Below are positions 5,069 through 60,867 of a stretch of 64,000 nt of DNA, piece after piece. Within the stretch, counting starts at the first letter, position 1. Each line of letters starts with the position of its first letter. The stretch covers positions 8,670 to 72,669 of the forward strand of contig JAIDWS010000035.1 of the NCBI GenBank assembly GCA_029059055.1. Reading direction: 5' to 3'. The notes below the pieces were generated by a model. It made no database searches. It was given only the letters and a program-made list of their open reading frames with translations, and had not been told where the DNA came from. The translations under genes and the position numbers were made by a program. This DNA is from Alphaproteobacteria bacterium. Lineage in GTDB: Bacteria; Pseudomonadota; Alphaproteobacteria; Rs-D84.

Positions 5069-6163
5069 GTGACAATCGCCCCGCCACAGATTATGATGAA
5101 AATCATGACACCGGCACACAATCTGTATATTCACGTCCCGTTTTGCATATCGAAATGCAATTACTGCGCTTTTTTTTCGCACCCATGTCGCACACCCGAT
5201 TGGGACGCGTACGCATCCGCCATTTGCGACGAAATCAAATCATGGCGCGAACGCCTGGGGCAAATTGTCATCCCCACCGTTTTTTTCGGCGGCGGGACAC
5301 CGTCACTGATGCCGACACAAACATTCGGCCAAATCATGACATGCATTGCACAAAATTTTGACATTGCGCCGGGGGCGGAAATTACCCTGGAATCCAATCC
5401 GGGGACACTGGACGCGGCGCGCCTGCGTGAATTTATGGCCCATGGGATTAACCGTCTGTCGGTGGGGGTTCAATCATTGAACGATGACACGTTGCGCTTT
5501 TTGGGGCGACGCCACACGGCGGCGGACGCATTAACACTGATTGACACGGCGCACAAAATGGGACTGCGCACGTCGGGGGATTTTATATACGGCATCCCAG
5601 ACCAAACGGCCGACGATGTAACCCGCATGTGCCGGCAAATCAACGCGGTGGGATTACGCCATTGTTCCATGTACGAATTAACCATCGAACCCGACACACC
5701 ATTTGGAAAAATGAATCTGGCGATGCCGTCAAACGACACAATGGCCGACATGTACACCGCGATTGGCGAAACGTTGGCATTGCCCCGGTACGAAGTGTCG
5801 AATTACGCCGCCCTACCCGACCAATGCCGCCACAATGCGAACATCTGGGCGGGGGACGCATATATCGGATTGGGTCGCGGCGCGGCGGGGCGCGTTGTCA
5901 TTGACGGCATTTGGCACGACCAGATGGGGGCGGGCCTGCGCTGTGCGCCGATGACGTCCCACGACCGTGCGGTTGAAAAAATCATCACCGGCATGCGCAC
6001 CATGCGCGGCGTTCAATTAACAGATGACGTACGCGCGGCACTGGATTGGGATGCGGTTACGACATGCACCGACGCGGTGACCCTGCGCCCGGACGGATTC
6101 TTGGCCCCCACCGCAAAAGGCATATTGATTTTGGACAATTTACTGGTAAAATTAATTCGGTAA
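5069..6163 (+). CDS. hemW: Radical SAM heme chaperone HemW (HemN-like coproporphyrinogen oxidase family)
   Basis: LYIHVPFCISKCNYCAF (CxxxCxxC radical SAM), GGGTPS, HemW-type C-terminus. Confidence 0.8.
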   Translation: MTIAPPQIMMKIMTPAHNLYIHVPFCISKCNYCAFFSHPCRTPDWDAYASAICDEIKSWRERLGQIVIPTVFFGGGTPSLMPTQTFGQIMTCIAQNFDIAPGAEITLESNPGTLDAARLREFMAHGINRLSVGVQSLNDDTLRFLGRRHTAADALTLIDTAHKMGLRTSGDFIYGIPDQTADDVTRMCRQINAVGLRHCSMYELTIEPDTPFGKMNLAMPSNDTMADMYTAIGETLALPRYEVSNYAALPDQCRHNANIWAGDAYIGLGRGAAGRVVIDGIWHDQMGAGLRCAPMTSHDRAVEKIITGMRTMRGVQLTDDVRAALDWDAVTTCTDAVTLRPDGFLAPTAKGILILDNLLVKLIR

Positions 6164-6166
6164 AAA

Positions 6167-8152
6167 ATGGAAAGCAAATTCTGGAACATCATTGGCGTTA
6201 TTGCGGTTGCCGCCGCCGTCGCCATTGCATATTTTGTATCAAAGGAAACACACATGACCACAGGCATCAAGACAGAAAACATGGACACCAGCGTTCGCCC
6301 CGGCGACGATTTTTATGATTACGCGACATTGGGCTGGCGCCGTGCCAATCCGATTCCGGACGATTACACACGTTACGGGTCGTTTGACGTTCTGCGGGAC
6401 CAGAATTTGAACCGCGTCCGCGAAATTGCCGAAACCGACGACGGAAAAATCGGCACATTGTACCGCGTGGCGATGGACGCAGACAAATTGAACGCCGACG
6501 GCACCGCGCCGGTTCAACCGTACCTGGCGGAAATTGACGCGATAAAATCGACGGATGAATTACCGGCATTTTTGGGCCGGATGCACCACCACGCAACGGC
6601 GTTCTGGGGCGACTGGGTTGCACTGGACGAAATGGACAGCACGCATTTCCTGTATAACATTGGCCAGGGTGCCATTGGTCTGTCGCGCGATTATTATTTT
6701 GATGACGATGAAAAATCCCGCGAAATCCGCACCAAGTACAAAAAATACATCACAGACCAAATGGCCAATTTCGGCATTCCGGTCGACGCGGAAAAATTAT
6801 ACACCCTGGAAGAACGCATGGCCAAATCATTTTATCCAAAAGAAAAACTGCGCGATCCCCACGCCAATTATCACAAGATGTCATTGGCGCAAATCCGCGC
6901 AGAATTTCCAGATTTTGATTGGGACGCATTTTTATCGGCACGCGGTGCAACCCCCGAATACATCAACATCGCCCAGGTTGAACCCATCGCCGAATCCATC
7001 AAAATCATGCACGACACAGATTTGGATTTGATTAAAACATATTTGAAATGGCGGATGATTAATTCTGGCGTGTCGTTGTTGGACGACAAAACATACGACA
7101 TCGCATTTGATTTTTACAATCGCACCATGGCGGGCCAACCCACGCCCAAGGCACGATGGAAACGCGCGGTATATTTACTGGACGATTCCCTGGGCGAAGA
7201 AATCGGCCGTCTGTACGTCAAAAAATATTTTTCCCCCGCGGCCAAAGACCGCATGCAGCATCTGGTTCAAAATCTGCAACGCGCATATCGGATGCGTATT
7301 GAAAAACTGGATTGGATGTCGGACGAAACCAAAGAAAAAGCCCTGGAAAAACTGGACACATTCCGCGCAAAAATCGGATATCCCGACCGTTGGCGTGATT
7401 ATTCGAAACTGGACATCCGGGATGATTCCCTGTGGGATAATATGGTGCGCGTCGCCGAATTCCAGGACCGCTTTTGGTTGGACAAAATCGGCGGTCCGAA
7501 CGATCCGACCCTGTGGTATATGAACGCCCACGAAGTCAACGCATATTACGACCCGTCGACCAACGAAATCTGTTTCCCGGCCGGCATTTTGCAACCGCCG
7601 TTTTTCGACATGGCGGCCGACGACGCGTTTAATTACGGCGCCATCGGCAGTGTGATTGGCCACGAAATGACGCACGGATTTGACGATTCCGGACGCAAAT
7701 TCGACCGCGATGGAAACCTGCGCGATTGGTGGACGGCGGCCGATGGCGCGCGCTTTGACGCCCAGGCATCCGTTCTGCGCGATTTTTTCAATAACATCCT
7801 GGTGGCACCCGGCACATATGCCAACGGTGAATTTACACTGGGCGAAAACTTGGCAGATTACGGCGGCATTACAATCGCGTTCACCGCGTACCAGAATTTT
7901 GCCACACCCGCCGCAACCGATGAACACGGCATGACGGGCGACATGCGCTTTTTCATCGCATACGCCGGGACCGAAGCCGGCAACATCCGCGACGACGCGA
8001 TTTTATTGCGGACAAAAACCGACGAACATTCGCTGTCGCGGTGGCGCGTAAACGGCATTTTGCCCCATATTGACGCATGGTACGACGCGTTCAACATCGG
8101 CCCGAACGACAAACTGTATGTCGCCCCGGATAAACGCATTAAATTATGGTAA
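6167..8152 (+). CDS. M13 family zinc metallopeptidase (neprilysin/PepO-like), type II membrane anchor
   Basis: N-terminal TM anchor, HEMTHGFDD (HExxH) and downstream GENLAD motif. Confidence 0.85.
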   Translation: MESKFWNIIGVIAVAAAVAIAYFVSKETHMTTGIKTENMDTSVRPGDDFYDYATLGWRRANPIPDDYTRYGSFDVLRDQNLNRVREIAETDDGKIGTLYRVAMDADKLNADGTAPVQPYLAEIDAIKSTDELPAFLGRMHHHATAFWGDWVALDEMDSTHFLYNIGQGAIGLSRDYYFDDDEKSREIRTKYKKYITDQMANFGIPVDAEKLYTLEERMAKSFYPKEKLRDPHANYHKMSLAQIRAEFPDFDWDAFLSARGATPEYINIAQVEPIAESIKIMHDTDLDLIKTYLKWRMINSGVSLLDDKTYDIAFDFYNRTMAGQPTPKARWKRAVYLLDDSLGEEIGRLYVKKYFSPAAKDRMQHLVQNLQRAYRMRIEKLDWMSDETKEKALEKLDTFRAKIGYPDRWRDYSKLDIRDDSLWDNMVRVAEFQDRFWLDKIGGPNDPTLWYMNAHEVNAYYDPSTNEICFPAGILQPPFFDMAADDAFNYGAIGSVIGHEMTHGFDDSGRKFDRDGNLRDWWTAADGARFDAQASVLRDFFNNILVAPGTYANGEFTLGENLADYGGITIAFTAYQNFATPAATDEHGMTGDMRFFIAYAGTEAGNIRDDAILLRTKTDEHSLSRWRVNGILPHIDAWYDAFNIGPNDKLYVAPDKRIKLW

Positions 8153-8547: not shown

Positions 8548-8997
8548 TTATCCTGCGATTTTCAGATTGGGTCGCATCGCCCGCAAATTATTCAGTGATT
8601 TTTCCTGGGCAACGCGGAATTCGGCCGGGTTCCAGATTTGAAAGCTGTTCCCGCGTCCGACAAAGACAGCCGTATCTGTGATACCGGCATGTTGCAGCAA
8701 TTCGGCCGGAATAACGATACGCCCGGTTACATCGAACGCCAACGGCCGCGCATCCGCGAACAGCATGGCCGACAAATCGTCCATTTCGCTGTCAAAGACG
8801 CCCATTTGGTCGGTTGCCGCCGCCATTTTTTCCATGCGGCCCATGGCCAACCCTTCGATACAATTGTGTGTGAACGACCGGTACAGAACGACCCCCGGGA
8901 ACGCATCATGCGCAACCGAAGCACGGAAAGACGCCGGGACGGAAATGCGTCCCTTGCTATCCAAACGGTTTTCATAAGATGAGAGAAACAATGACAT
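8548..8997 (-). CDS. mraZ: Transcriptional regulator MraZ, with no downstream dcw genes
   Basis: MSLFLSSYENRLDSKGRISVPASFRA... shows the duplicated SpoVT/AbrB-like halves typical of MraZ. Confidence 0.85.
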   Translation of the reverse strand: MSLFLSSYENRLDSKGRISVPASFRASVAHDAFPGVVLYRSFTHNCIEGLAMGRMEKMAAATDQMGVFDSEMDDLSAMLFADARPLAFDVTGRIVIPAELLQHAGITDTAVFVGRGNSFQIWNPAEFRVAQEKSLNNLRAMRPNLKIAG

Positions 8998-9703: not shown

Positions 9704-9780
9704 CAGTTTCCGGTCCATACCGGAAGGAAGGGAGCCTGTCGGTCCATTCGGACCGACAGTTTTTTTATCATGACCATTTT

Positions 9781-9900
9781 ACTGGATTGCCACGCTGCGC
9801 TGACGCTTGCTCGCAATGACAAAGGAGGTGAAATTCCTGGAACTTTATCACCCTTGTCATTGCGAGCCATCGGCGAAGCAATCCAGTAAATAAATCCCCA
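9781..9900. repeat. Imperfect-palindromic repeat element of about 105-120 bp, copy 1 (actggattgc ... cgcaatgacaa ... ttgtcattgcga ... gcaatccagt, aataaatcccc tail)
   Basis: Nested inverted repeats; a second copy lies at 15560-15680. Confidence 0.7.
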
Positions 9901-9920
9901 CACCAATAAATTCAAATTCC

Positions 9921-9949
9921 TTGAAACTTCGCGTGGGATGCGATATACT
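9921..9949 (+). promoter_or_regulatory. Sigma70-like promoter TTGAAA-17-TATACT for leader A and its downstream gene
   Basis: Hexamers at 9921-9926 and 9944-9949, 17-bp spacer. Confidence 0.5.
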
Positions 9950-9955
9950 TTCCTT

Positions 9956-10125
9956 GCATTGGGAAACCGGTGTAGGCTTCAAAACCTAATAGTACTGTCA
10001 GTGATGACATTAAACTATCTCCAACCGTTGGTTGGGGGGCTGTGAATATATTGAATAAACAGCGCTATTGTACTAATAGTTTTGAACCTCCAACCACCCA
10101 AATGTTTTGGGTGGTGTTTTTAATA
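9956..10125 (+). ncRNA. Structured 5' leader / attenuator RNA A, with a possible 14-codon leader ORF at 9997-10041 and a terminator at 10089-10122
   Basis: Paralogous to 14259-14437. Conserved CCAACC..GGTTGG..GGTGAATA..GAATAAAC..TCCAACCACC blocks and a terminal hairpin with a T-run. Confidence 0.55.
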
Positions 10126-10147
10126 AAAAACCAAGGGAGTTTAAACT

Positions 10148-10375
10148 ATGGCAAAATTATTAATCGACGCCAATTACTATGGCAATATTATGCGATGCGC
10201 GCGACAACACCTGCGTATCAGCGTGGCCGATGCCGCCGCATTGTTGAAGATGAGCAAGAAAGATTACAAAAAATGCGAACGCGGGCATGATTTATTTGAC
10301 GAAGGTATCATGCGCCGATTTTACCACGGCGCATTTGCGATGCTGGTGATAAAGCGGGGTAAAAATAATCTGTGA
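10148..10375 (+). CDS. Small XRE-type HTH protein (75 aa) downstream of leader A
   Basis: RBS ccaagggag; HTH-like LRISVADAAALLKMSKKDYKKCERG. Confidence 0.45.
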   Translation: MAKLLIDANYYGNIMRCARQHLRISVADAAALLKMSKKDYKKCERGHDLFDEGIMRRFYHGAFAMLVIKRGKNNL

Positions 10376-10404
10376 CAGACCACCTGGCGGGGGCGTTTCC
10401 ACAT

Positions 10405-10434
10405 AAAAAACACCGGCAAATACCGGTGTTTTTT
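10405..10434. terminator. Bidirectional terminator, hairpin caccggcaaataccggtg (copy 2 of the family)
   Basis: Between convergent 10148-10375 (+) and ihfA (-). Confidence 0.6.
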
Positions 10435-10439
10435 GATGA

Positions 10440-10721
10440 TTATGCAACACGCTTTCTGAATTCGGTGCTGGGGCGGAATGTCGCCACGCGCCGCGCCGTT
10501 ATTAATGCCGGCGCACCCGTTTTCGGGTTGCGTCCCATACGGGGAGCTTTGTCCAAAATCTTGAAACTGCCCAGGCCCGCAAATTTGACTTCTTCGCCGT
10601 GAATCAATGATTCTTGGATTTCACCAAAAATCACATCCACCAATTTATACGAATCCGTCGTGGTCAGACCAAACTGTTCACGCAATTTGTTTGCAAAATC
10701 CATTCTGGTTATTGTTGCCAT
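10440..10721 (-). CDS. ihfA: Integration host factor subunit alpha
   Basis: GLGSFKILDKAPRMGRNPKTGAPALITARRVATF; conserved position downstream of fabH. Confidence 0.85.
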   Translation of the reverse strand: MATITRMDFANKLREQFGLTTTDSYKLVDVIFGEIQESLIHGEEVKFAGLGSFKILDKAPRMGRNPKTGAPALITARRVATFRPSTEFRKRVA

Positions 10722-10724
10722 TTT

Positions 10725-11663
10725 TTACACCCTGATTAATGCCGCGCCCCATGTTAAACCACTGCCGAACGCGGGATACAAAATCAATTGCCCACGTTGA
10801 ATCAGACCGCGGTCCATCCCATATGCCAACGCCAAAACACCCGATGCGCCACTGGTATTGGCATGTTTGTCCACGGTGACCAAAATCTTGTCCAGTGGGA
10901 AACCCAATCTTTCCGCGCCACTGTTAATAATGCGCAGATTCGCCTGGTGTGGGATAATCCAATCCACATTGTCCGCCGTGATGCCTGCATGTTGCATGAT
11001 GTAACTGGCGGCTTCGGGCATTAATGTGACGGCCTTTTTATACGTTTCGGGACCGTTCATAGAAATCTTGTGATCGGGCGTCCCGTGCAACATATCAAAC
11101 GATTTGCCGTCCGCCATCACAACCGTGTCAATAATGCCGGAATAACTGGACGTGGAATGTTCGAAAATCAATGCGCCCGCGCCATCACCGAACAATACGG
11201 CCGTGCTGCGGTCATCCCAATTGATAAACCGGGTCATTTTTTCCGCGCCGATAACCATGATACGGTGGTGAATCCCCGCGGTAAAGAACGCGCGCGCGCA
11301 ATGCAGTGCATAAATATATCCCGTACATGCCCCGCGCACGTCAAATGCCGGCTGGTCCCGGGTGGCGCCCAGTTTACCCAAAATCTGGACCCCGACCGAC
11401 GGGAAATCCAATTCGGATGTTGTTGTGGCCACCACCACCATATCGATATCGTCAATCGTCAGATTCGCATTATCCAGCGCACGCTGGGCCGCAATTGCGC
11501 CCATATCCACAACGGTTTCGTCATCGCGTGCAAAGTGGCGTTCGCGCATCCCGGTGCGTTGAACAATCCATTCGTCGGATGTGTCCATAATCTTTTCAAA
11601 ATCTTGATTGGTCATAATTTTTTCAGGCAAATATGACCCGTACCCAACCAGTCTGCTACCCAT
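10725..11663 (-). CDS. fabH: 3-oxoacyl-ACP synthase III
   Basis: Active-site GACTGYIYAL (Cys), ...IPHQAN..., ...GFGSGLTWGAALIRV. Confidence 0.9.
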   Translation of the reverse strand: MGSRLVGYGSYLPEKIMTNQDFEKIMDTSDEWIVQRTGMRERHFARDDETVVDMGAIAAQRALDNANLTIDDIDMVVVATTTSELDFPSVGVQILGKLGATRDQPAFDVRGACTGYIYALHCARAFFTAGIHHRIMVIGAEKMTRFINWDDRSTAVLFGDGAGALIFEHSTSSYSGIIDTVVMADGKSFDMLHGTPDHKISMNGPETYKKAVTLMPEAASYIMQHAGITADNVDWIIPHQANLRIINSGAERLGFPLDKILVTVDKHANTSGASGVLALAYGMDRGLIQRGQLILYPAFGSGLTWGAALIRV

Positions 11664-11752
11664 AACTTTTTCTCCATACTTATTTGACTATTATAGTCTG
11701 GCCGATAATAACTTGCAATATTAAAATCCAGCGAATAAGATATAAGGAATAC

Positions 11753-11828
11753 GTCCCCATAGTTCAATTGGATAGAACAAATTCCTCCTAAGAATTAAAT
11801 ACAGGTTCGATTCCTGTTGGGGATACCA
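11753..11828 (+). tRNA. tRNA-Arg (anticodon CCT)
   Basis: Manual cloverleaf: acceptor GTCCCCA/TGGGGAT, D-arm GTTC..GAAC, anticodon loop CTCCTAA, T-arm ACAGG-TTCGATT-CCTGT, CCA end; 76 nt. Confidence 0.85.
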
Positions 11829-11845
11829 TAAAAATCGCGTATAAT

Positions 11846-12181
11846 GTGGACGTCATGAAAAATAAAGCTGTAAAGATTGGAATCATCGCATCGCTGTTGC
11901 CGCATGTGTTTTGTTGCGGATTGCCGATTGCGCTGTCGATTATCGGATTGATTGCGCCGGAATCTGCGCATCTGCATATTATTCCGCAATGGCTGGAACC
12001 GTGGCTGTTCGTGTTTTCGGCCGGGATGTTGGGTCTGTCGTGGGTGTTGGTGGTGCGTGATTGCCGATGCGAATGCGACCATTGTCACGGCAATGACGGC
12101 CACAAACCCCAGAAATTTATTTTGGGCATCATCACCCTGATTTTTATCACCAGTGTGATTTTACATCTGATGTCGCATTAA
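11846..12181 (+). CDS. Small three-TM membrane protein with a CC motif in TM1 and a cytoplasmic CRCECDHC cluster (MerT-like metal transporter topology)
   Basis: HVFCCGLPIALSII in TM1 and a Cys cluster between TM2 and TM3 mirror MerT. Confidence 0.45.
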   Translation: MDVMKNKAVKIGIIASLLPHVFCCGLPIALSIIGLIAPESAHLHIIPQWLEPWLFVFSAGMLGLSWVLVVRDCRCECDHCHGNDGHKPQKFILGIITLIFITSVILHLMSH

Positions 12182-12182
12182 A

Positions 12183-12212
12183 ACAGAAACGGGGCCGGGC
12201 CCCGTTTTTTTA
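12183..12212. terminator. Bidirectional terminator (acggggccgggccccgt)
   Basis: GC hairpin with a T-run between convergent genes. Confidence 0.5.
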
Positions 12213-12752
12213 TTTGCCGATTTCGACCAACCATTCCTGTATCACGGGGCCTGCGTTTGCCGCATCCCCACCACGAATGGCGATGGCGCGCCCGTGCATG
12301 GAATTCGGGGTTAATTTTTCCACATCGGCGGCAATGGTGCCGGTACCGCTGCCTTCGTGGGTGTTAAACGGGATGACGGTTTTACCCGACAAATCCGCCG
12401 TGGTTAAAAACGTATGTACCGGACCGGCCATCGTCCCCCACCAACATGGCGTGCCGACAAATACCGTATCGTATTGCGTTAAATCCGGTATGGCGTTAAT
12501 CGCCGGGAAAGTACCGTTTTCAATTTCTGATTTGGCAACGACGGTGGCCGAACGATATTCGGCGGGATAATGGTTTGCGTCGGCCGTCGTGATTTCAAAG
12601 ATATCGGCATCGGTGGCCGATTTAATCAATTCCGCCACCGTCGCCGTATTACCCGAACGTGAATAATACGCGACCAGACTTTTGGCATCCGCCGCCCCGC
12701 ACAGTGCGACACCCGCGCACAATCCCCAGAATAAATGTTTCATGTTTTCCAT
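12210..12752 (-). CDS. Flavodoxin-like fold protein with N-terminal signal peptide
   Basis: SLVAYYSRSGNTATVAELI (flavodoxin T/SxTGxT-like loop). Hydrophobic N-terminus ...GLCAGVALCGAADA. Confidence 0.6.
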   Translation of the reverse strand: MENMKHLFWGLCAGVALCGAADAKSLVAYYSRSGNTATVAELIKSATDADIFEITTADANHYPAEYRSATVVAKSEIENGTFPAINAIPDLTQYDTVFVGTPCWWGTMAGPVHTFLTTADLSGKTVIPFNTHEGSGTGTIAADVEKLTPNSMHGRAIAIRGGDAANAGPVIQEWLVEIGK

Positions 12753-12765
12753 CCTGTTGTTAAGT

Positions 12766-13716
12766 TTATTTTTCGTCCAAATTGACCAATTCGTATGTCC
12801 GCACCCCCAGGCCGATTTCCGCCGCCGATTCCAACGTATGCAATCCGTTGCGTTCTGCGATGCGTTGCATCAGCGCGGCATTACCGTCGGCACGCGACAC
12901 CATGTCGATGGCGGCCTGGTCGATGGCAACGGGGTCGGTCGAAACCAAAATACCAATATCATGGATATCGGGTTCGGCCGGGTTGCCATTGCAATCACAA
13001 TCGATACTGATGCGGTTTAATACATTTATGTAAATGATGTTATCGCGCCCCAAATGGTCGACAACAGATTTGCCGGCGTCCGCCATTGATTCCAGAAATG
13101 CCGTTTGTTCCCCGCCCCACGGGTTGGTTTTACTGGTCCCGCCGCTGTGAATCCAAGATTTACCCATGCGACTGCCCAGGCCGATGGAAATATTCTTTAT
13201 CGCGCCGCCATATCCGGCCATGGCATGTCCCTTGAAATGCGACAGAATGATATAAGAATCATAATCATCAAAATGCGAACCGACATAATTTTCGGTTAAC
13301 ACTTTGCCCCCGTGAACCGGCAAAGCCATATCGCCATCTTCGTCCTGGATATCGACGGGCGCAACGTCAAAGAATCCGTGTTCTTTGACAACGCGCCAGT
13401 GATTGGCACTGTTGGCGCGCGCGCCGTCATATGCCGTATTGCATTCCACAATCGTCCCATCGACCGATTGAATCAAATCCCGCACCAAATCGGGGCGCAA
13501 ATAATTACTGCGCGGCGGTTCCCCCGTCGTCATTTTGACGGCGACGCGTCCCCGCGGCGTCCATCCGGCCGCACGGTATGCCCGGACCAGTCCCGCCGCC
13601 GAAATATCTGATGTAAAATAAACTTTTGGCATGGTTTCCCCCCTTGGTTTAAAAAATAAAAACAGCGCGGCTGAAACAATCACAATTCCCCCCGCAACAT
13701 ATGCCCAGATTTTCAT
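12766..13716 (-). CDS. DUF362 domain protein; second in-frame start with a strong SD at about 13632 (MPKVYF...)
   Basis: MPKVYFTSD...VAVKMTTGEPP matches the DUF362 N-terminal pattern. Both starts are preceded by GGGGGG-type SD sequences. Confidence 0.55.
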   Translation of the reverse strand: MKIWAYVAGGIVIVSAALFLFFKPRGETMPKVYFTSDISAAGLVRAYRAAGWTPRGRVAVKMTTGEPPRSNYLRPDLVRDLIQSVDGTIVECNTAYDGARANSANHWRVVKEHGFFDVAPVDIQDEDGDMALPVHGGKVLTENYVGSHFDDYDSYIILSHFKGHAMAGYGGAIKNISIGLGSRMGKSWIHSGGTSKTNPWGGEQTAFLESMADAGKSVVDHLGRDNIIYINVLNRISIDCDCNGNPAEPDIHDIGILVSTDPVAIDQAAIDMVSRADGNAALMQRIAERNGLHTLESAAEIGLGVRTYELVNLDEK

Positions 13717-13738
13717 CGGTTCACCCCCCTTTTTTTAT

Positions 13739-13785
13739 CTTGACTTTATTACTATAAATCTTAGACTTGTGTCTAAGTCAAGGAG
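13739..13785 (-). promoter_or_regulatory. MerR-type regulated promoter: on the minus strand TTGACT, a 19-bp spacer containing the dyad cttagac-N4-gtctaag, then TATAGT; divergent from merR
   Basis: The 19-bp spacer with a centred palindrome is the hallmark of MerR-family activated promoters. It drives the DUF362-flavodoxin operon. Confidence 0.6.
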
Positions 13786-13790
13786 TTTTT

Positions 13791-14198
13791 ATGCGTATCG
13801 GCGAAGTGGCCAAAATAACTGGTCTGACGGAACACACATTACGGTTTTATGAAAAATCGGGCCTGATGCCCGACACGGCCAAGCGGCGCGGTGGTATTCG
13901 TGATTATTGCGACACGGACATTGAACGGTTGGGGATTATTGAATGCCTGAAAAAGACGGGCATGCCCCTGCGCGATATCAAGACATTCATGCAATGGTGC
14001 GCCCAGGGCGACGCCAGCATTGAACAGCGTTACCAAATGTTTATCCAGCGCAAAGAAATTGTCCGGCAACAAATGGCGGAATTGAAAAAGACCATGTCGG
14101 TCATCGATTTTAAAATCAAATATTACGGTGACGCGCGCGATGCAGGCACGCTGGACATTTACAAAGATAAAAAGATTAAGAAGCCTGTATTTTTTTAA
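13791..14198 (+). CDS. MerR family transcriptional regulator with no metal-binding Cys pair
   Basis: MRIGEVAKITGLTEHTLRFYEKSGL (MerR HTH); SD AAGGAG; coiled-coil dimerisation region. Confidence 0.8.
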   Translation: MRIGEVAKITGLTEHTLRFYEKSGLMPDTAKRRGGIRDYCDTDIERLGIIECLKKTGMPLRDIKTFMQWCAQGDASIEQRYQMFIQRKEIVRQQMAELKKTMSVIDFKIKYYGDARDAGTLDIYKDKKIKKPVFF

Positions 14199-14223
14199 CC
14201 CATGCGCACCCATTTAAAAATGG

Positions 14224-14252
14224 GTGACATTTTCCAAAACATGCGATATAAT
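14224..14252 (+). promoter_or_regulatory. Sigma70-like promoter GTGACA-17-TATAAT for leader B
   Basis: Hexamers at 14224-14229 and 14247-14252. Confidence 0.5.
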
Positions 14253-14258
14253 ATGCCC

Positions 14259-14437
14259 CGTGGTGGCCGATGGCACCATGGGGCTTTACAACCCGTTGAA
14301 CGCGTCCGCGTGACGATAAACATTCCAACCCATTTGGTTGGAGTGTGGTGAATACATCGAATAAACCGCGCAATTCGTTCAATTGTTGTAAAACTCCAAC
14401 CACCTGAAAAAAATCCGGTGGTTTTATTTTTTGTTCG
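14259..14437 (+). ncRNA. Structured 5' leader / attenuator RNA B (paralogue of 9956-10125), with a possible 13-codon leader ORF at 14307-14348 and a terminator at 14394-14437
   Basis: Same conserved blocks and the same hairpin competition as leader A. Confidence 0.55.
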
Positions 14438-14446
14438 GGGTTAACA

Positions 14447-15235
14447 ATGAAATTTGTTTTATGGACAATTGCGTGCGTGATGGGGATGCCGGCGGTGGCA
14501 TGGGGCGTATGCGATGGGGGAATGTATTTAAACGGCACCACATGCGAAAAATGCGTCGATGGGTATTATTGTCCCGGTGACGACACGCAACATCCATGTC
14601 CGACGGACACGACCGATTGGTACGGATTCGTATCAACACTGTACCCGGTGGACCGGGTGACGCAACAATCATGGCTGATGTCGTGGGACCCCGGTTCATC
14701 GACAAACGGGGCCATCTGGCCGGCGCATTGTTTCGCAGGTGTCTTTATATCCAGCCCATATGGGGAACTGTATATCGAAAGCTGGTATAACGGCACCAAT
14801 TACTGGAACGGCGAACAGGCGTTTTTGTGGTACCAGGCCAACCCCGGATATTATTTGGCCCAATATGTCGGGACGACATATCATGTCTGGTACCGATACG
14901 CCCGGCCATGCACAAATCTGCCGGAACATGCACATTATACCGGCGCCGGCACGCCCGATTCCGCCGATGGCACCATTCGGGATGCAAACGATTGCCCGTG
15001 GGAATGCGATGACGGATACGGCAATCATGACGGGGTGTGCGTGCCGTTGTGCGACGGCGTCAATCGGTTAAAGACCGGCAACGGTCGAACATTTAATTTA
15101 TACCCCATGGCATATACCACGCCGTCATTGCGCATTGAATATGGCGGCAAAACATGCTATGGCGTGTTAAAGTCGGGCGCGGCCGCATCAATCAATCTGC
15201 GATACAATAACCAAACGTATCACCTGTCTGACTAA
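14447..15235 (+). CDS. Secreted cysteine-rich protein (signal peptide; CEKCVDGYYCPG furin/TNFR-like Cys repeats; Trp/Tyr-rich core)
   Basis: Signal peptide MKFVLWTIACVMGMPAVAWG; Cys spacing reminiscent of eukaryotic Cys-rich repeats. Confidence 0.5.
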   Translation: MKFVLWTIACVMGMPAVAWGVCDGGMYLNGTTCEKCVDGYYCPGDDTQHPCPTDTTDWYGFVSTLYPVDRVTQQSWLMSWDPGSSTNGAIWPAHCFAGVFISSPYGELYIESWYNGTNYWNGEQAFLWYQANPGYYLAQYVGTTYHVWYRYARPCTNLPEHAHYTGAGTPDSADGTIRDANDCPWECDDGYGNHDGVCVPLCDGVNRLKTGNGRTFNLYPMAYTTPSLRIEYGGKTCYGVLKSGAAASINLRYNNQTYHLSD

Positions 15236-15308
15236 GGCTGGATTTTCATCCTGTATATTTTGCGCCATCACTGTGATACAATATCCCCAGAAACAGAAAG
15301 GTTATATC

Positions 15309-15476
15309 ATGCCCCTGAAACAAGGTTGCACCCGCAAAACCATATCCGAAAACATCCGCGCCGAAGTCCATGCCGGCCGCCCCCAGAAACAGGCGGTGGC
15401 GATTGCCCTGTCGATTGCGGACAAAAACGCATACAAATGCCGCCCCCGCAAACCATCCCTGAAAAAGGCGAAATAA
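15309..15476 (+). CDS. Small basic conserved protein (55 aa; KQAVAIALSIA motif)
   Basis: Resembles a widespread small-protein family with a ...RKQA(I/V)AIALS.A... core. The ORF extends in-frame back to 15273. Confidence 0.35.
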   Translation: MPLKQGCTRKTISENIRAEVHAGRPQKQAVAIALSIADKNAYKCRPRKPSLKKAK

Positions 15477-15559
15477 AATCCCCCGCAACCGCCGTTTTTT
15501 TGTTAAATCACTTTGTCCCTTTTGGCATCCCATAACGCGCACAATGCCCTATTCCTATT

Positions 15560-15680
15560 ACTGGATTGCTTCACTGCGTTCGCAATGACAATGGTGTTTA
15601 ATTTCCCGGCTACTTCATCCCCTTTGTCATTGCGAAGGAGTGAAACGACTGCGGCAATCCAGTGAATAAAATCCCCGCCA
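15560..15680. repeat. Imperfect-palindromic repeat element, copy 2
   Basis: Same termini (actggattgc/gcaatccagt) and core (cgcaatgacaa/ttgtcattgcga) as 9781-9900. Confidence 0.7.
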
Positions 15681-15695: not shown

Positions 15696-15727
15696 CAAAA
15701 AATCCCCCGATTGGGGGGATTTTTATT
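15696..15727. terminator. Terminator hairpin aaaaaatcccccgattggggggattttt downstream of plsX
   Basis: A-run, 7-bp GC stem, T-run. Confidence 0.5.
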
Positions 15728-16790
15728 CTTCGGCGTGGATTAATTCGGCCTTAATCGGTGCCAATGCTTCCACATGCGCGCTGATTTTATGATACACGTC
15801 GGATTTGGTTAAATCCAGCGCACTGCGTATTGCATTGGCAAATGCCAACGCATCACTGTTGCCGTGCGTTTTAATCGCAAACCCACGCAATCCCAAAAAC
15901 ATCGCCCCGGCATACGAACGCGGGTCAATTTTATGTTTTAACCGCTTAAACACATGGACCAAGAAAAATGCCCCGATAACCGCCAACACGGATTTTTTCA
16001 GGTTTTCCATCAACACGCGCTTAATCAATTTGGCGGTACCTTCCACCGTTTTTAAAACGATGTTGCCGGTGAACCCGTCGGTCACGACAACCTGGACATT
16101 ACCGGCACTGATATCGGTTCCTTCGACAAATCCGATGTATTCATACGGTAATTCATCCTTGTGCGCCATCAGCAATTTGTTCAACCGTTGCAGGGTTTCG
16201 TTCCCCTTGGTATCTTCTTCGCCGATGTTTAACACGCCCAATTTCGGGTGCGGCATATGACCGATAACGTCGGCATACACACTGCCCAGGACGGCAAAAT
16301 CGAACAGATTTTCGGCATCACATTGAACATTCGCCCCCAAATCCAGCATGACCACACGGCTGTCACCGCCACCGGACGGCAACATGGTTGTAATCGCCGG
16401 GCGCGAAATCCCATCGACCGTTTTCAATGCCAATTTAGACAGGGCCATCAACACACCGGTATTTCCCGCACTGATGACGGCGGTTGAATTTCCTTCGCGG
16501 ACATCCTTGATCGCCATATACATGGACGTATTTTGCGCATGACGGATGACATCGCGCACCTTGTCTGTGCCACGAATGACATCGGGGGCATGAATGATTT
16601 CGCAATTACGCGCGACACGCGGGTATTTGTTCATCATCCTGCGCAGACGCTTTTCATCACCGAACACACGGAAAAACGCCATGTCTTCGCCATTTTGATA
16701 CAGGAACTGGTTCATTCCCCCCAGAACGGCGCCGGGTGCCTTGTCCCCGCCCATTGCGTCAATTGAAATAATTTGTTTTTCACCGGACAT
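15723..16790 (-). CDS. plsX: Phosphate acyltransferase PlsX
   Basis: ISIDAMGGDKAPGAVLGG N-terminus; full-length PlsX-like. Confidence 0.9.
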   Translation of the reverse strand: MSGEKQIISIDAMGGDKAPGAVLGGMNQFLYQNGEDMAFFRVFGDEKRLRRMMNKYPRVARNCEIIHAPDVIRGTDKVRDVIRHAQNTSMYMAIKDVREGNSTAVISAGNTGVLMALSKLALKTVDGISRPAITTMLPSGGGDSRVVMLDLGANVQCDAENLFDFAVLGSVYADVIGHMPHPKLGVLNIGEEDTKGNETLQRLNKLLMAHKDELPYEYIGFVEGTDISAGNVQVVVTDGFTGNIVLKTVEGTAKLIKRVLMENLKKSVLAVIGAFFLVHVFKRLKHKIDPRSYAGAMFLGLRGFAIKTHGNSDALAFANAIRSALDLTKSDVYHKISAHVEALAPIKAELIHAEE

Positions 16791-16859: not shown

Positions 16860-17009
16860 TTATTTAGACCCGCACGCTGCGCAGACGTGATGCGGGCGTT
16901 TCTTTTCGCCGCATGCCTTGCAAACGGTGGACGGCATGATTGTCAGCGCATCATGCGAACGACGCTGTGCGGAACGTGCTTTGCTTGTTTTACTTTTTGG
17001 CGTTGCCAT
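16860..17009 (-). CDS. rpmF: 50S ribosomal protein L32 (49 aa; not in the ORF track because it is shorter than 60 aa)
   Basis: Manual translation: MATPKSKTSKARSAQRRSHDALTIMPSTVCKACGEKKRPHHVCAACGSK*. Canonical position upstream of plsX. Confidence 0.85.
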   Translation of the reverse strand: MATPKSKTSKARSAQRRSHDALTIMPSTVCKACGEKKRPHHVCAACGSK

Positions 17010-17545: not shown

Positions 17546-20500
17546 CTAGATATCCAACAGCTGCTGCTGGACATTGCCTTCGCGGGCCAGCTTTTCCGCT
17601 TTTTCTTCTTCTTTGGCGATTTCGCGTACGCGACGGACATATGCCCCGGTTCCAATCGGAATCAAACGACCCACAATCAGGTTTTCGTTAATCCCGACCA
17701 GTTTATCGGTTGCCCCGCTGATGGCGGCATCCACCAACACTTTGGTCGTCTGTTGGAACGACGCGTTGGAAATGAACGAACGGGATGTCAACGACGCACG
17801 GGTCAAACCGACCAAGACCTGGGACGCTTCGGCGGCTTTGCCACCGTCGCGGATGACGCGCGCGTTTTCTTCTTCGAAATCGACGCGGTCGACCACCTGG
17901 CCCATCAAGAATCCCGTATCACCCGGATTGGTGATTTCCACACGGCGTGTCATTTCACGGATCAAGATTTCGATATGCTTGTCGTTGATGATAACGCCCT
18001 GCAAGCGGTAAACCTGCTGAATCTGTTCGACCATAAATGTTGCCAAGGCTTTCTGGCCCAAGATGCGCAGAATATCCTGGGGCACGGGGTCGCCATCGAC
18101 CAGCTTTTCGGCCTTTTTCACCGTATCGCCGCTGCGCACCAACAGGTTTGTTCCCTTTGGCACGGCGTATTCGACCGGTGCGGTACCGTCATCCGGTTCA
18201 ATACGGATGATGATTTTGGATTTGGCATCTTCCAGTTCGATGGTTCCATCCACTTCGGCCAGCAATGCCGGGTTTGTCGGACGGCGGACTTCCAACAGCG
18301 CTTCGACGCGCGGCAGCCCACCCGTAATGTCGCTGGTACGTTTGGTCTGGACCGGAATACGTGCCAAGATGTCCCCGGCGGCAACGCGGTCGCCATTGGC
18401 CACGTTCAGCACCGAATAAATCGGCAACAGATATTCCGCGATTTTCTTTCCCCCCAGGGAAACAACTTCGCCCTTGTCATTGACCAGTGTAACCGCCGGC
18501 TTCAATGCCTTTTTGGTGTTTGTTTTCCAATTGATAACCTTGCGCGAAACGATACCGGTCACGGCGTCGACTTCTTCTTGGAACGAAACGTTTTCAATCA
18601 AATCGTTAAAGTTCACAATACCGTCTTTTTCCGCGATAATGGTGTTGGAATACGGATCCCATTCGGCCACTTTGGCGCCTTTTTCAACGGTGTCACCGTC
18701 ATTGACAATCAACATGGACGCATACGGCAACGCCGCAGTGAACAGTTTTTCACCCTTGTCATCGACGACGGACAATTCGCCATTACGGGACAGAACCACA
18801 ACACGTCCCACCGAATTTTTAATCGTGTTAACACCCGACAATTTGATGGTACCGGACACGGGCACTTCGATAAAGTGGCTTTCCGCGCCCCCGGACGCAA
18901 TCCCCCCAATGTGGAAGGTTCGCAGTGTCAACTGGGTCCCCGGTTCACCGATGGATTGACCGGCGATAACACCGACGGCTTCGCCGACGTGGGCCAAACT
19001 GCCGCGGGACAAATCCATACCGTAACATTTCGCACACAGACCGTCACTGCAACATGTCAGTACGCTGCGGACATCAACGGACGGGATACCGGCTTCGTTA
19101 ATCTTTTTCGCGGCGGATTTTGTGACCAATTCACCGGCGGGAACGATAACTTCCTTGGAAATGGGATGAACGATGTCATGCGCCGCCGTACGTCCCAAAA
19201 CAACATCACCCAACGGCACGGACAGTGCGCTGCCCTGGTACACGGGTTTGGCCGTGATGTATTCGGTTGTGCCGCAATCATGTTCGGTGATGACGGTGTT
19301 CTGCGCCAATTCCACCAAACGACGGGTCAAATACCCCGCTTCGGCGGTTTTCAACGCGGTATCCGACATCCCCTTACGCGCACCGTGGGTGGACGTAAAG
19401 TATTCGGACATGGTCAGACCTTCCTTAAAGTTCGAAATAATCGGAACTTCGATAATGGAACCGTCGGGCTTCTGCATCATACCACGCATACCGGCCAACT
19501 GCTGAATCTGTCCTTTGGACCCACGGGCGCCGGACAACGCCATCATCAACACGGAATTCCAATTGTCGCCTTCGGTCTTGCCCAACGCGGCATATGCCAA
19601 ATCCCCCAGTTTATCGGTGGTTTTCTGCCACAAGTCAATCAACTTGTTATATCTTTCGCCATGGGACAGCAACCCATTCTGGTACTGCTGTTCGATTTCT
19701 TCGGCGGCTTTTTCCGCATCGGCAATCATGTCTTTCTTTTCTTCTGGGATGACGATATCGTCAAAACCGATGGAAATACCACTGCGGGCGGCCTGTTCAA
19801 AGCCGGTGTTTTTCAACGCGTCCGCCAACAAAATCATATCTTTGTCGCCGCAACGTTCGTATGTTGTCGCCAACAAGTTTTTGATTTCTTTTTTCGAAAA
19901 AACTTTATTGACCAAATCGAACGGCATATTGTCTTTCTTGGGCAACAATTCACCCAGAATCATACGACCGGCGGTTGTCTGATATGTTTTCCCGTCGATA
20001 CGCGCGATAATCGGCGTATGCAATGTGATGGTCTTGTTTTCCAGGGCCAATTTCACTTCGTCCATGTTGGCAAAGCGCGGCGATTTTTCCGAATGTTCGC
20101 CGTTAATCAGCGAAATGTAGTAAATCCCCAATACCATGTCCTGGGACAATTCAATCATGGGTTCACCGTTCGCCGGCGACAACACGTTGTTCGACGACAG
20201 CATCAATGTGCGCGCTTCCAATTGCGCTTCCAGCGAAATCGGCACGTGCACGGACATCTGGTCACCGTCAAAGTCCGCATTAAATCCTTTACACACCAAC
20301 GGGTGCAGACGGATGGCCTTGCCTTCGATTAAGACCGGTTCAAACGCCAACAATGACAAACGGTGCAATGTCGGCGCACGGTTCAACAGAACCGGATGCT
20401 GATAAATCACTTTTTCCAGGATTTCCCAAACGATTTCTTCGCCGTTTTCGACCATTTTGCGTGCGGTCTTTAACGTGTTGGCATAATCACCCGCCAACAG

Positions 20501-21655
20501 ACGCGCAAACACGAACGGTTTGAACAATTCCAACGCCATTGTTTTCGGCAAACCGACCTGATGCAATTTCAGGGTGGGTCCCGACACAATTACAGAACGT
20601 CCGGAATAATCCACACGTTTACCCAACATGTTCATACGGAAACGTCCGGATTTCCCACGCAGCGAATCCGACAAAGATTTCAGCGGGCGGCGGTTCTGGG
20701 ACACCATCGGGCGTGCCTTGTGACCATTGTCGAACAATGAATCGACGGCTTCCTGTAACATGCGCTTTTCATTGCGGACAATGATTTCCGGCGCATGCAT
20801 ATCAATAAATCTTTTCAAACGGTTGTTACGGATGATAACGCGACGATACAAATCGTTCAAATCCGATGCCGCGACGTGCCCCGCATCCAATGTCACCAAG
20901 GGACGCATATCCGGCGGGATAACCGGCAGAATGTCCGGCAACATCCAGGCCGGGTCGGTCTTGGATTCCAAGAACGCTTCGACCAGTTTCAATTGCTTAA
21001 TCAAAGCCTTGCGTTTGGCTTCGGATTTTGTTTCGGCCAATTCCGCGCGCAGACGGCGACGTTCGTCACCCATATCCAGGTTGGCAATAATGCTGCGCAC
21101 ACCTTCGGCACCGATGCCGACATGGAACGCATCCGCGCCGAATTCTTCGACGGCGGCCTGGTATTCGTCTTCGCTGATAACGTCATACATTTTCAAGCTG
21201 GTCAGGCCCGGTTCCGTCACGATATACGCATCGTAATAAATCACCTGTTCCAGTTTTTTCTGGGGCAGATTGTTCAACAATGTCGCGATTTTACCTTCGC
21301 GCATGAACCATGTGTGGGACACCGGCATCGCCAATTTGATGTGGCCCATACGTTCACGGCGCACGGACGAAGACCCGATTTCAACCCCGCAACGTTCACA
21401 GACCACGCCACGGAATTTGATGCGCTTGTACTTACCACATGCGCATTCATAATCCTTCACAGGTCCGAAAATCTGCTGACAGAACAACCCGTCGGCTTCC
21501 GGTTTCAGGGAATGATAGTTAATTGTTTCCGGCTTTTTAACTTCGCCATGGGACCAAGACAGGATTTCTTCGGGTGATGCGATTGTAATCCGCAGTGCGT
21601 CGAACTGTTCTTTGGTTTCAATTTGTCCAAATATCTTTTGCAACATATTGGTCAT
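17546..21655 (-). CDS. rpoC: DNA-directed RNA polymerase subunit beta'
   Basis: 1369 aa; NADFDGDQM catalytic motif; Zn-binding Cys. Confidence 0.97.
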   Translation of the reverse strand: MTNMLQKIFGQIETKEQFDALRITIASPEEILSWSHGEVKKPETINYHSLKPEADGLFCQQIFGPVKDYECACGKYKRIKFRGVVCERCGVEIGSSSVRRERMGHIKLAMPVSHTWFMREGKIATLLNNLPQKKLEQVIYYDAYIVTEPGLTSLKMYDVISEDEYQAAVEEFGADAFHVGIGAEGVRSIIANLDMGDERRRLRAELAETKSEAKRKALIKQLKLVEAFLESKTDPAWMLPDILPVIPPDMRPLVTLDAGHVAASDLNDLYRRVIIRNNRLKRFIDMHAPEIIVRNEKRMLQEAVDSLFDNGHKARPMVSQNRRPLKSLSDSLRGKSGRFRMNMLGKRVDYSGRSVIVSGPTLKLHQVGLPKTMALELFKPFVFARLLAGDYANTLKTARKMVENGEEIVWEILEKVIYQHPVLLNRAPTLHRLSLLAFEPVLIEGKAIRLHPLVCKGFNADFDGDQMSVHVPISLEAQLEARTLMLSSNNVLSPANGEPMIELSQDMVLGIYYISLINGEHSEKSPRFANMDEVKLALENKTITLHTPIIARIDGKTYQTTAGRMILGELLPKKDNMPFDLVNKVFSKKEIKNLLATTYERCGDKDMILLADALKNTGFEQAARSGISIGFDDIVIPEEKKDMIADAEKAAEEIEQQYQNGLLSHGERYNKLIDLWQKTTDKLGDLAYAALGKTEGDNWNSVLMMALSGARGSKGQIQQLAGMRGMMQKPDGSIIEVPIISNFKEGLTMSEYFTSTHGARKGMSDTALKTAEAGYLTRRLVELAQNTVITEHDCGTTEYITAKPVYQGSALSVPLGDVVLGRTAAHDIVHPISKEVIVPAGELVTKSAAKKINEAGIPSVDVRSVLTCCSDGLCAKCYGMDLSRGSLAHVGEAVGVIAGQSIGEPGTQLTLRTFHIGGIASGGAESHFIEVPVSGTIKLSGVNTIKNSVGRVVVLSRNGELSVVDDKGEKLFTAALPYASMLIVNDGDTVEKGAKVAEWDPYSNTIIAEKDGIVNFNDLIENVSFQEEVDAVTGIVSRKVINWKTNTKKALKPAVTLVNDKGEVVSLGGKKIAEYLLPIYSVLNVANGDRVAAGDILARIPVQTKRTSDITGGLPRVEALLEVRRPTNPALLAEVDGTIELEDAKSKIIIRIEPDDGTAPVEYAVPKGTNLLVRSGDTVKKAEKLVDGDPVPQDILRILGQKALATFMVEQIQQVYRLQGVIINDKHIEILIREMTRRVEITNPGDTGFLMGQVVDRVDFEEENARVIRDGGKAAEASQVLVGLTRASLTSRSFISNASFQQTTKVLVDAAISGATDKLVGINENLIVGRLIPIGTGAYVRRVREIAKEEEKAEKLAREGNVQQQLLDI

Positions 21656-29716: not shown

Positions 29717-30376
29717 GTGGCAGACCGCATAGAGCCGCCGATTTTACTGTCCAGACTGATGACATTCGTCTTTGCCGCCGCGTTGGTGGTGGTGGTCGTA
29801 TTGGTGGTCACACTGGCCAAGATGTTCCCGCTGAACCGGCCCCAGATATTCTTTTTAACGACCCAGCCGCGCGCCGATTTGGAAATCCGGCTGTATCCGA
29901 TGCCGCCCAGCGACGAAAACGTTGATATTTACAAGCGCAGCTTTATCAAGGAATATATCAAGGCCCGCAATGAAATCATCCCGAACGTCGGCGTAATGCG
30001 CCGCAAATGGTCAAATACCGACGACGGCATCGTGAACATGTGGTCAACACCGGATGTGTATGCCACCATGACCCAGACGGATTTATGGACCGCGTACATG
30101 AACGATGTGCCGGACACAGAATTCTATTGCCCGGTGGAATTTGCCCCCAACGCCATTGCCCCGCGTTCAGAAAACACATATGCGGTCAGTTTTACGTATT
30201 TTTGCACAAATAATAATGGACAGACCGATAAAAAAGATTATACAATTGTAATCAGATTGGAATCTGACGAAAACCCGACGATTAAGTGGGGGGACCGCCT
30301 GAATAACCCGTTGGGGATTCGTGTGGCCGAATATACGGTTGAATCCGGAAACGGTGACCCGTTGGACTTTAAATAA
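29717..30376 (+). CDS. virB8: VirB8/TrbF-like bitopic inner-membrane protein (short cytoplasmic tail, one TM, periplasmic domain with C-terminal NPLG motif); GTG start
   Basis: Topology and C-terminal ...RLNNPLGIRVAEYTV (NPxG motif of the VirB8/NTF2-like family). First gene of a 3-gene operon with VirB9/VirB10 homologues. Confidence 0.5.
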   Translation: MADRIEPPILLSRLMTFVFAAALVVVVVLVVTLAKMFPLNRPQIFFLTTQPRADLEIRLYPMPPSDENVDIYKRSFIKEYIKARNEIIPNVGVMRRKWSNTDDGIVNMWSTPDVYATMTQTDLWTAYMNDVPDTEFYCPVEFAPNAIAPRSENTYAVSFTYFCTNNNGQTDKKDYTIVIRLESDENPTIKWGDRLNNPLGIRVAEYTVESGNGDPLDFK

Positions 30377-30415
30377 ACCGGCGCGTCGGACGATATACTA
30401 AGGAAAGGGACCATA

Positions 30416-31954: not shown

Positions 31955-32000
31955 TCAGTTGGGGGGACCGCATACACATGCGGCGGGTAACGGGTAACAG

Positions 32001-60612: not shown

Positions 60613-60867
60613 CTCATTTCTTTTCCGTCTCTTTGAGAATGAATTATAATAAAGTCAATAAAAAAATGATATAAAAAAATTATATCATCCCATATTCTAC
60701 TTGTTATCCGTGGCTTCAAGTAAACAAGTACACACAAACTGTGTATACATAATGAGCAAGATCCACATAAAAAGAAAATATACGTATACAGAAAGCTCGG
60801 GATGCCCTTTACACACAAATTACTAAGCCACCCAACAAAAATAAAACCCGCCGGGTGGCGGGTATGA

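Follow-up and report, generated by a model that had tools for sequence, protein, structure and literature searches.

The question raised by the 64-kb stretch of alphaproteobacterial DNA analysed here (the window, meaning the whole stretch) is whether two genes that are commonly neighbours, plsX and fabH, were driven apart by an inserted element or by rearrangement of the chromosome around them. In Escherichia coli these genes belong to the cluster rpmF-plsX-fabHDG-acpP, and the order plsX-fabH-ihfA is found in many Alphaproteobacteria. In the window, plsX and fabH are 4,059 bp apart, and between them lie tRNA-Arg(CCT), a membrane-protein gene, a flavodoxin-like gene, a DUF362 gene, a divergent merR gene, a leader RNA with a Cys-rich secreted protein, a small basic protein and a palindromic repeat. 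The original prediction, made from the sequence of the window, located all of these features and the separation of the two genes correctly and took them for an accessory module of ~4 kb, inserted beside the tRNA and bounded by the repeat. We find it very probable that the interval is instead a mosaic within a rearrangement-prone neighbourhood and not one inserted element. The locus is a case of ordinary gene-order scrambling, with optional cassettes endemic to the clade, in an uncultured lineage of reduced genomes.

The window derives from a gut alphaproteobacterium of the 'Candidatus Enterousia' type, order Rs-D84, the genomes of which do not exceed ~1 Mb (PMC12306168). Scanning species-representative genomes with PlsX as guide yielded 80 related loci (PlsX 76–97% identical, with at most 10 kb of sequence to each side of plsX), all of them from gut or rumen metagenome-assembled genomes (MAGs) labelled Alphaproteobacteria or 'Candidatus Enterousia'; single loci are referred to by handles such as L001. 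Gene order was compared by tblastn of the window proteins against these loci, and synteny was read in the 70 that have at least 1.5 kb downstream of plsX. The rpoC-(HAD)-rpmF-plsX block is kept in all 80 loci; no such conservation is seen downstream of plsX. In none of the 70 species with readable downstream sequence does fabH directly follow plsX. In those loci that show it, the fabH block is 0.45–9.9 kb from plsX, co-oriented with it in 13 species and opposed to it in 13. The orf111/mraZ block likewise occurs after plsX in both orientations (31 versus 13 loci), and 61 species display 37 distinct strings of blocks, some of which differ by locus truncation alone.

Because fabH is never found after plsX and because its distance and orientation vary, the split appears to be older than the diversification of the clade, and its clade-wide occurrence argues that the DNA now lying between plsX and fabH in the window did not cause it. 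As judged from these sequences, the uncoupling is an old, clade-wide product of block rearrangement. The prediction that a ~4-kb insertion had split the two genes, to be checked by their contiguity in related genomes, is contradicted by these counts. We propose that the plsX-fabH link would already have been broken before the sampled Rs-D84/'Ca. Enterousia' species diverged. Three stable blocks, namely rpoC-(HAD)-rpmF-plsX, ihfA-fabH/tRNA-Arg(CCT)-membrane gene(-basic gene) and orf111/mraZ, would have been repeatedly reordered and flipped, and the arrangement in the window, with the fabH block co-oriented with plsX and 4 kb off, would be one outcome.

Part of the interval is nevertheless optional, and to this extent the predicted accessory module stands, although not as a single inserted island. 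At least six species share a frame made up of the membrane gene and the small basic gene, and the slot between these two genes (12182-15308 in the window) varies in content. It measures 48–130 bp in L009, L010 and L013, where homologues of the basic gene adjoin the membrane gene; such homologues are also present in L001, L015 and L025, and the exact basic-gene sequence was found on 211 contigs. The slot holds the MerR cassette alone in L015, the leader with the Cys-rich unit alone in L001, and both in the window. Two autonomous transcription units would thus come and go among species between the frame genes. The first would comprise a MerR regulator (NmlR/AdhR-like) and a divergent promoter from which a DUF362 protein with a membrane anchor and a flavodoxin-like protein that is exported are expressed. 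In the second, a promoter and a three-way-junction leader with terminator would precede the gene for a secreted, Cys-rich and fast-evolving protein.

We compared the window with L001, which an RpoC tree identifies as the sister of the window species (RpoC 98.8% identical). The only clean indel is 12210-14221 (~2 kb), which is absent from L001; its ends are the bidirectional terminator and a point shortly before the -35 element of the leader promoter. The MerR/DUF362/flavodoxin triad found here also occurs in L015, L022 and L083 and, because it stands beside mraZ in L022 and L083, it does move. As L001 is the sister and L015 (PlsX 80%, RpoC 93.6% identical) falls within the same major clade as the window, the tree favours, as the simpler explanation, a cassette that is old in this slot and was lost in L001. 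A recent gain by recombination from another site or strain, and not loss from the sister, seems rather improbable to us. The clean absence in L001 with a junction between two terminators, the relocation of the triad to mraZ and the empty slots of L009, L010 and L013 would all agree with such a gain. However, the cassette occupies the same slot in the same orientation in L015, the identities of its DUF362 (70–78%) and MerR (62%) proteins are in line with those of other non-core genes, and its composition does not deviate.

Those genes of the interval that were checked appear to be native to the clade. Homologues of the DUF362 protein grade from 88% to 66% identity, and all named ones come from alphaproteobacterial MAGs; a foreign origin of DUF362 was rejected on this gradation. 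Its closest non-self copy (L081) stands alone in another context. For the Cys-rich protein we found 60 homologues in total, all in alphaproteobacterial MAGs where named, with identities that drop steeply (89%, 67%, then at most 46%) and with several paralogues per genome; within the 80 loci it was detected in L001, with weak matches in L002 and L076 and none elsewhere. For the membrane protein there are 291 homologues, none with a Pfam domain, and the few with a source name are nearly all from alphaproteobacterial MAGs, one being labelled Muribaculaceae. These three families, which the check covered, are clade-endemic and not foreign as far as the homologues tell; the flavodoxin, MerR and basic genes were searched in the related loci only. 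In the sister species, L102 (11453-12241) carries an extra 262-aa gene between the genes for HTH83 and an M13 peptidase, of the same length as the Cys-rich protein, of which it may be a paralogue.

The regulator of the MerR cassette contains MerR_1 (E=2e-20), MerR (E=3.7e-13) and MerR-DNA-bind (E=5e-7) domains, and is called at 135 aa in other assemblies. The best of 19 MerR-family models (NCBIfam) was NmlR at 84.4 bits, which does not reach the cut-off of 175. In the 74 bp that separate DUF362 from merR, a minus-strand promoter is formed by a -35 element TTGACT (13781-13776), a 19-nt spacer and a -10 element TATAGT (13756-13751), and the spacer holds the dyad CTTAGA-N6-TCTAAG (13760-13777), as read from the sequence. 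An over-long spacer is a hallmark of MerR-activated promoters. The layout of promoter and dyad is kept in L015, L022 and L083, where the dyad reads CCTAGA..TCTAGG, a compensatory change. The regulator has a Cys at position 52, which we take to be where AdhR and NmlR carry their sensing cysteine. Both products of the divergent operon have N-terminal hydrophobic leaders. From these features we infer, as the weakest step of the argument, that the cassette could be an envelope module induced by electrophile or redox stress. DUF362 itself is an uncharacterised member of the LarA clan (PMC11770544).

The second unit led to an RNA that is not confined to this slot. Copies of the leader number two in the window and three in L001, with others in ten related loci (L005, L006, L011, L012, L015, L027, L044, L049, L051 and L054). 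The predicted fold is a three-way junction with helices P1 (GGUUGGRGKG / CUCCAACC), P2 and P3, followed by an intrinsic terminator, and the P2 loop is invariant (GAAUAYAYNGAAUAA). An upstream CCAACC can instead pair with the 5' strand of P1, and on inspection both pairings change together in L049. A pattern scan of metagenome contigs gave at least 120 leader loci (L104-L223); in an alignment of 81 sequences the P2 pairs change on both sides in 15–42 sequences. Among the listed metagenome loci, the ORFs (open reading frames) downstream of the leader fall into 45 clusters, the largest of which (27/87) consists of proteins like the 75-aa helix-turn-helix (HTH) protein of the window, and many others carry signal peptides. 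Membership of sRNA-Xcc1 (RF02221), the sole Rfam family to show any resemblance, was considered and rejected: copy A scored 31 bits, short of the gathering score of 53, and copy B did not match, 4/20 metagenome loci scored 31–35 bits, and L097/L098 gave no match. The leader is, on this covariation, a widespread three-way-junction RNA that is not curated in Rfam.

In the window, one leader belongs to a ~600-bp unit of repeat, promoter, leader and HTH gene (9778-10375), and this unit also occurs at unrelated loci (L093-L098; in L093 at about 5640-6228), among them the gap between rpmB and parC and a site with an aminoacyl-tRNA synthetase gene on one side and a Colicin_V-family gene on the other. 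At these loci the HTH protein remains 100% identical despite 13–16 nucleotide changes, 11–14 of them at third codon positions. Palindromes flank the unit on both sides in metagenome loci L176, L130, L150 and L123. The palindrome was discarded as a constant partner of the leader, being upstream of just 12/122 leaders. A more far-reaching reading, which we regard as doubtful, is that the region downstream of plsX in Enterousia-type genomes is a dedicated exchange site. Its units (promoter, leader and a small HTH or secreted Cys-rich ORF, or the MerR regulon) would be shuffled by recombination at palindromes, and the 75-aa HTH protein, the gene of which often has repeats on both sides, might take part. 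The leader would act as a new attenuator, responsive to a ligand or a protein, of a regulon of surface and secreted proteins.

We then turn to the palindromes themselves. As originally predicted, the repeat next to plsX (W2) has a second copy beyond fabH-ihfA (W1). The two share ~80% identity, bracket 5.7 kb that include fabH-ihfA and are the sole copies in the window (nhmmer E about 1e-34). Their hairpins are very stable (W1, -57.4 kcal/mol, z=-9.1; W2, -46.4 kcal/mol, z=-6.0), with 0/200 shuffles as stable, and nested inverted repeats are visible in the repeat alignment. Among the related loci, copies occur in L001, L006 (about 8, in tandem), L011 (3), L027, L051 and L071, and the metagenome loci contain 39 copies in 17 loci; in other species the repeat lies directly downstream of plsX or near mraZ, sometimes in tandem arrays. 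Beside mraZ in L006 (18477-20182), a dense array of ~8 palindromic repeats is interleaved with three leader copies. Neither an Rfam match to the palindrome nor, in Pfam scans of the window, a transposase (RAYT or a parent insertion sequence) was found. An attC-like palindrome within an integron cassette array was also considered and rejected: the repeat ends read ACTGGATTGC...GCAATCCAGT and on inspection lack the core-site consensus RYYYAAC / GTTRRRY, and the scanned ORFs include no integrase. By their sequence features the palindromes are taken to be hairpins like the repetitive extragenic palindromes (REP).

The sequences that flank the palindromes are collinear with L001, but the alignment runs in reverse over 9811-12209 and 14222-15556; therefore, the 5.7 kb between the palindromes is inverted relative to L001. 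The repeat beside plsX in L001 is chimeric: the half nearer plsX matches the outer half of W2 (94.5% identity), and the remaining half matches the inner half of W1 (88%). This places the inversion breakpoints inside the palindromes. The repeat had been predicted to bound an island; what it marks is an inversion breakpoint. L001 has two inverted 578-bp copies of repeat, leader and HTH gene (87.7% identical) at the ends of the segment, and the window retains one full unit of this kind and one lone repeat. W1 heads one repeat-leader-HTH unit; in the mechanism we infer, W2 would probably be the remnant of a second, and recombination between such inverted units would have flipped the 5.7-kb segment in one of the sister lineages. 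The orientation in the window is suggested to be the older state because fabH is co-oriented with plsX in L015, L018 and L025.

That the segment is a programmed invertible element switching within populations is very unlikely. Its breakpoints do lie in palindromic repeats, and in several samples the short-read contigs have their ends precisely in the repeats (Logan contigs at 15574-15587, other assemblies at 9841 and 9863); however, such contig ends are expected because hairpin-forming palindromes alone break assemblies. In addition, the scanned window ORFs include no invertase, the four spanning or partial assemblies of the window species all show one orientation, and 23/23 contigs of the sister species show the other. 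The inversion is a fixed difference between sister species, and no switching within a species was seen in these contigs.

We next consider the tRNA, which had been predicted to form the edge of an island. Among the 26 related species with tRNA-Arg(CCT) within reach of plsX, the tRNA adjoins fabH in 15 and ihfA in 7 (22/26 together), and a homologue of the membrane gene lies on its other side in 20. The tRNA and the membrane gene are thus best read as a conserved backbone unit beside fabH/ihfA and not as an integration site, and the two are probably co-transcribed because the gene starts 26 nt after the tRNA. In seven species (L038, L044, L046, L053, L062, L065 and L071), fabH is absent between ihfA and tRNA-Arg(CCT); in L046 and L071, the immediate neighbour downstream of plsX is ihfA, which is on the opposite strand, and the tRNA and the membrane gene come after it.

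A ~4-kb island integrated at tRNA-Arg(CCT), with the repeat as its distal bound, that split an intact plsX-fabH operon is accordingly highly improbable. In its favour are the tRNA at one edge and the repeat at the other, several accessory-looking genes, and the absence of part of the interval from relatives. In addition to the synteny and the conserved tRNA-proximal gene, however, searches with 22-nt and 18-nt segments of the tRNA 3' end (up to 3 mismatches) retrieved only the tRNA itself in the 64 kb, and a Pfam scan of ~47 window ORFs, including all those of the interval, detected no integrase or transposase (the domains Phage_integrase, Resolvase, rve and DDE were all absent). Instead of adjoining the tRNA, the second copy of the repeat is on the far side of fabH-ihfA, and the cargo families that were checked are clade-endemic. 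The interval genes have a GC content of 0.46–0.54 and a third-position GC (GC3) of 0.55–0.62, inside the backbone range, as the original prediction had remarked of GC. A mis-assembled or chimeric MAG contig can practically be dismissed: despite the metagenomic source and the repeats flanking the segment, the window is not an artefact because four independent assemblies (contigs of ERZ14208469, ERZ14208484, GCA_029058995.1 and SRR14411247, 5–16 kb) match its arrangement at 99.3–100% identity.

The membrane protein itself had been described as MerT-like. Its nature as a Cys-motif membrane protein is confirmed, but the MerT identity was rejected. Across 26 homologues, P16-H17-x-F19-C20-C21, C70, C72, C74, C77 and three His are invariant, and the vicinal Cys pair sought in a test for MerT/MerC is present in the first transmembrane helix. 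However, the window protein scores 15 bits against Pfam MerC (cut-off 27.6), and matches among the 26 homologues are weak and sub-threshold (MerC in 21/26, best E 2.7e-4; MerT in 2/26, best 4.7e-5). A profile of the protein had no match in the PDB, and the interval contains neither merA nor merP. The nearby MerR is NmlR-like, belongs to the separate optional cassette and is not a mercury-type partner of the membrane gene.

Several points weigh against the reading of an old, rearranged mosaic. All 80 comparators have a PlsX at least 76% identical to that of the window. Given the triad beside mraZ elsewhere, the cassette may have been gained in the window lineage instead of lost in L001, and the inversion may have taken place in either of the two lineages. 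The breakpoints are fixed to ~30 bp only and, with W1 and W2 only ~80% identical, homologous recombination between them is no more than plausible. Functions throughout are deduced from domain matches and motifs.

The features of the locus are collected in Table 1. Only about half of the 80 related species have the HAD/PNKP-phosphatase-like gene that separates rpoC from rpmF. The mraZ gene is solitary, in that the usual division genes rsmH-ftsL-ftsI do not come next. Elsewhere, the window contains genes resembling VirB8, CagX/VirB9 and TrbI/VirB10, components of type IV secretion (29717-34436), and, further along (58817-60818), an adjacent pair of DNA methylase genes, one of the N6/N4 type and one of the C5 type.

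Table 1. Features of the plsX-fabH neighbourhood in window coordinates (a dot denotes a feature listed without strand)
Feature	Position	Strand	Remarks
rpoC	17546-21655	-	window gene
HAD/PNKP-phosphatase-like gene, 132 aa	17077-17475	-	between rpoC and rpmF
rpmF	16860-17009	-	window gene
plsX	15723-16790	-	Pfam FA_synthesis E=8e-96; closes the rpoC-(HAD)-rpmF-plsX block
Palindromic repeat W2	15556-15676	.	nhmmer E=7e-35; solitary copy, located where the basic gene and plsX converge
Small basic protein, 55 aa	15309-15476 (ORF opens 15273)	+	far edge of the variable slot, conserved
Cys-rich secreted protein, 262 aa	14447-15235	+	signal peptide read from sequence; variable unit
Leader RNA B and intrinsic terminator	14309-14430 (leader)	+	upstream of the Cys-rich gene
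Promoter of the Cys-rich unit, GTGACA-17-TATAAT	14224-14252	+	strong; promoter scan 11/12 consensus positions
MerR-family regulator	13791-14198 (ORF opens 13767)	+	MerR_1 domain
Divergent MerR-type promoter/operator	13740-13783	.	read from sequence
DUF362 protein with N-terminal membrane anchor	12766-13716	-	PF04015 E=1.4e-45; operon gene 1
Flavodoxin_4 protein, signal-peptide-like N-terminus	12210-12752	-	PF12682 E=1.5e-22; operon gene 2
Bidirectional terminator hairpin	12185-12209	.	terminator scan, both strands; common to membrane and flavodoxin genes
Cys/His-motif membrane protein, 108 aa	11855-12181	+	next to the tRNA
tRNA-Arg(CCT)	11753-11828	+	ARAGORN; Rfam tRNA 65.6 bits
fabH/ihfA promoter, TTGCAA-17-TATAAT	11718-11690	-	promoter scan 10/12
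fabH	10725-11663	-	Pfam
ihfA	10440-10721	-	Pfam
Terminator of the HTH unit	10405-10434	+	terminator scan
75-aa HTH protein gene	10148-10375	+	repeat-leader-HTH unit
Leader RNA A	10001-10122	+	second window copy of the leader
Promoter of the leader A-HTH unit	9921-9949	+	promoter scan
Palindromic repeat W1	9777-9898	.	nhmmer E=1.6e-34; 5' end of the repeat-leader-HTH unit
orf111, 111 aa	9368-9703		conserved; divergent from mraZ
mraZ	8548-8997	-	paired divergently with orf111

These results provide a first picture of how a core neighbourhood is rearranged in uncultured gut alphaproteobacteria, with three blocks reshuffled and REP-like palindromes at breakpoints; in the literature on DUF362 and on plsX/fabH/ihfA synteny we found nothing that assigns a function or documents the gene order of this clade. 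They also caution that a tRNA, a repeat and a broken canonical operon are not evidence of integration without an empty site in relatives. The optional genes are pinpointed as a MerR-controlled DUF362/flavodoxin module and a fast-evolving family of Cys-rich secreted proteins. The most interesting by-product, and one worth following up, is the leader RNA, which in its numerous metagenomic copies precedes small regulators and secreted proteins of diverse kinds.

Finally, we compared the locus with known systems. As in the canonical rpmF-plsX-fabH cluster, rpmF-plsX and fabH-ihfA each persist as pairs; unlike in that cluster, the pairs are uncoupled in 70/70 species, fabH of the window has its own promoter, and seven species lack fabH beside ihfA. 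Like tRNA-linked islands and integrative elements, the interval places accessory-looking genes of partly variable content beside a tRNA; unlike them, it has no integrase, att-type tRNA duplication or compositional signature, its tRNA-proximal gene is conserved clade-wide, and its variable part starts 350 bp past the tRNA. The membrane protein resembles MerC/MerT solely in the CC-bearing first helix. The MerR cassette shares with NmlR/AdhR regulons a winged HTH MerR domain and a target promoter that is divergent and has a dyad in its 19-nt spacer, but its regulator scores 84 bits against the cut-off of 175, and in place of an alcohol or aldehyde dehydrogenase its targets are DUF362 and an exported flavodoxin-like protein.

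The palindromes share with REP/BIME, Correia and RPE elements a ~120-nt imperfect palindromic structure with a very stable hairpin, an intergenic location, occurrence singly or in tandem arrays (L006 and L011) and a position at inversion breakpoints. They differ in having no sequence relation to a curated family (no match in Rfam), only two copies in 64 kb, no RAYT or transposase seen, and one subset fixed ~130 nt upstream of a leader-HTH gene. In Xanthomonas, sRNA-Xcc1 lies upstream of symE in integron cassettes and, in APSE phage, upstream of an ORF6N gene (bioRxiv 10.1101/2025.06.18.660453; 10.1101/2020.03.17.996009). The leader resembles it in a full-length match to the three-way-junction architecture and in standing directly upstream of varied small ORFs. 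It differs in its scores (31–35 bits against 53, with several homologous copies that give no match), in the absence of an integron, in its clade, in the intrinsic terminator that follows it and in its behaviour as a 5' leader.

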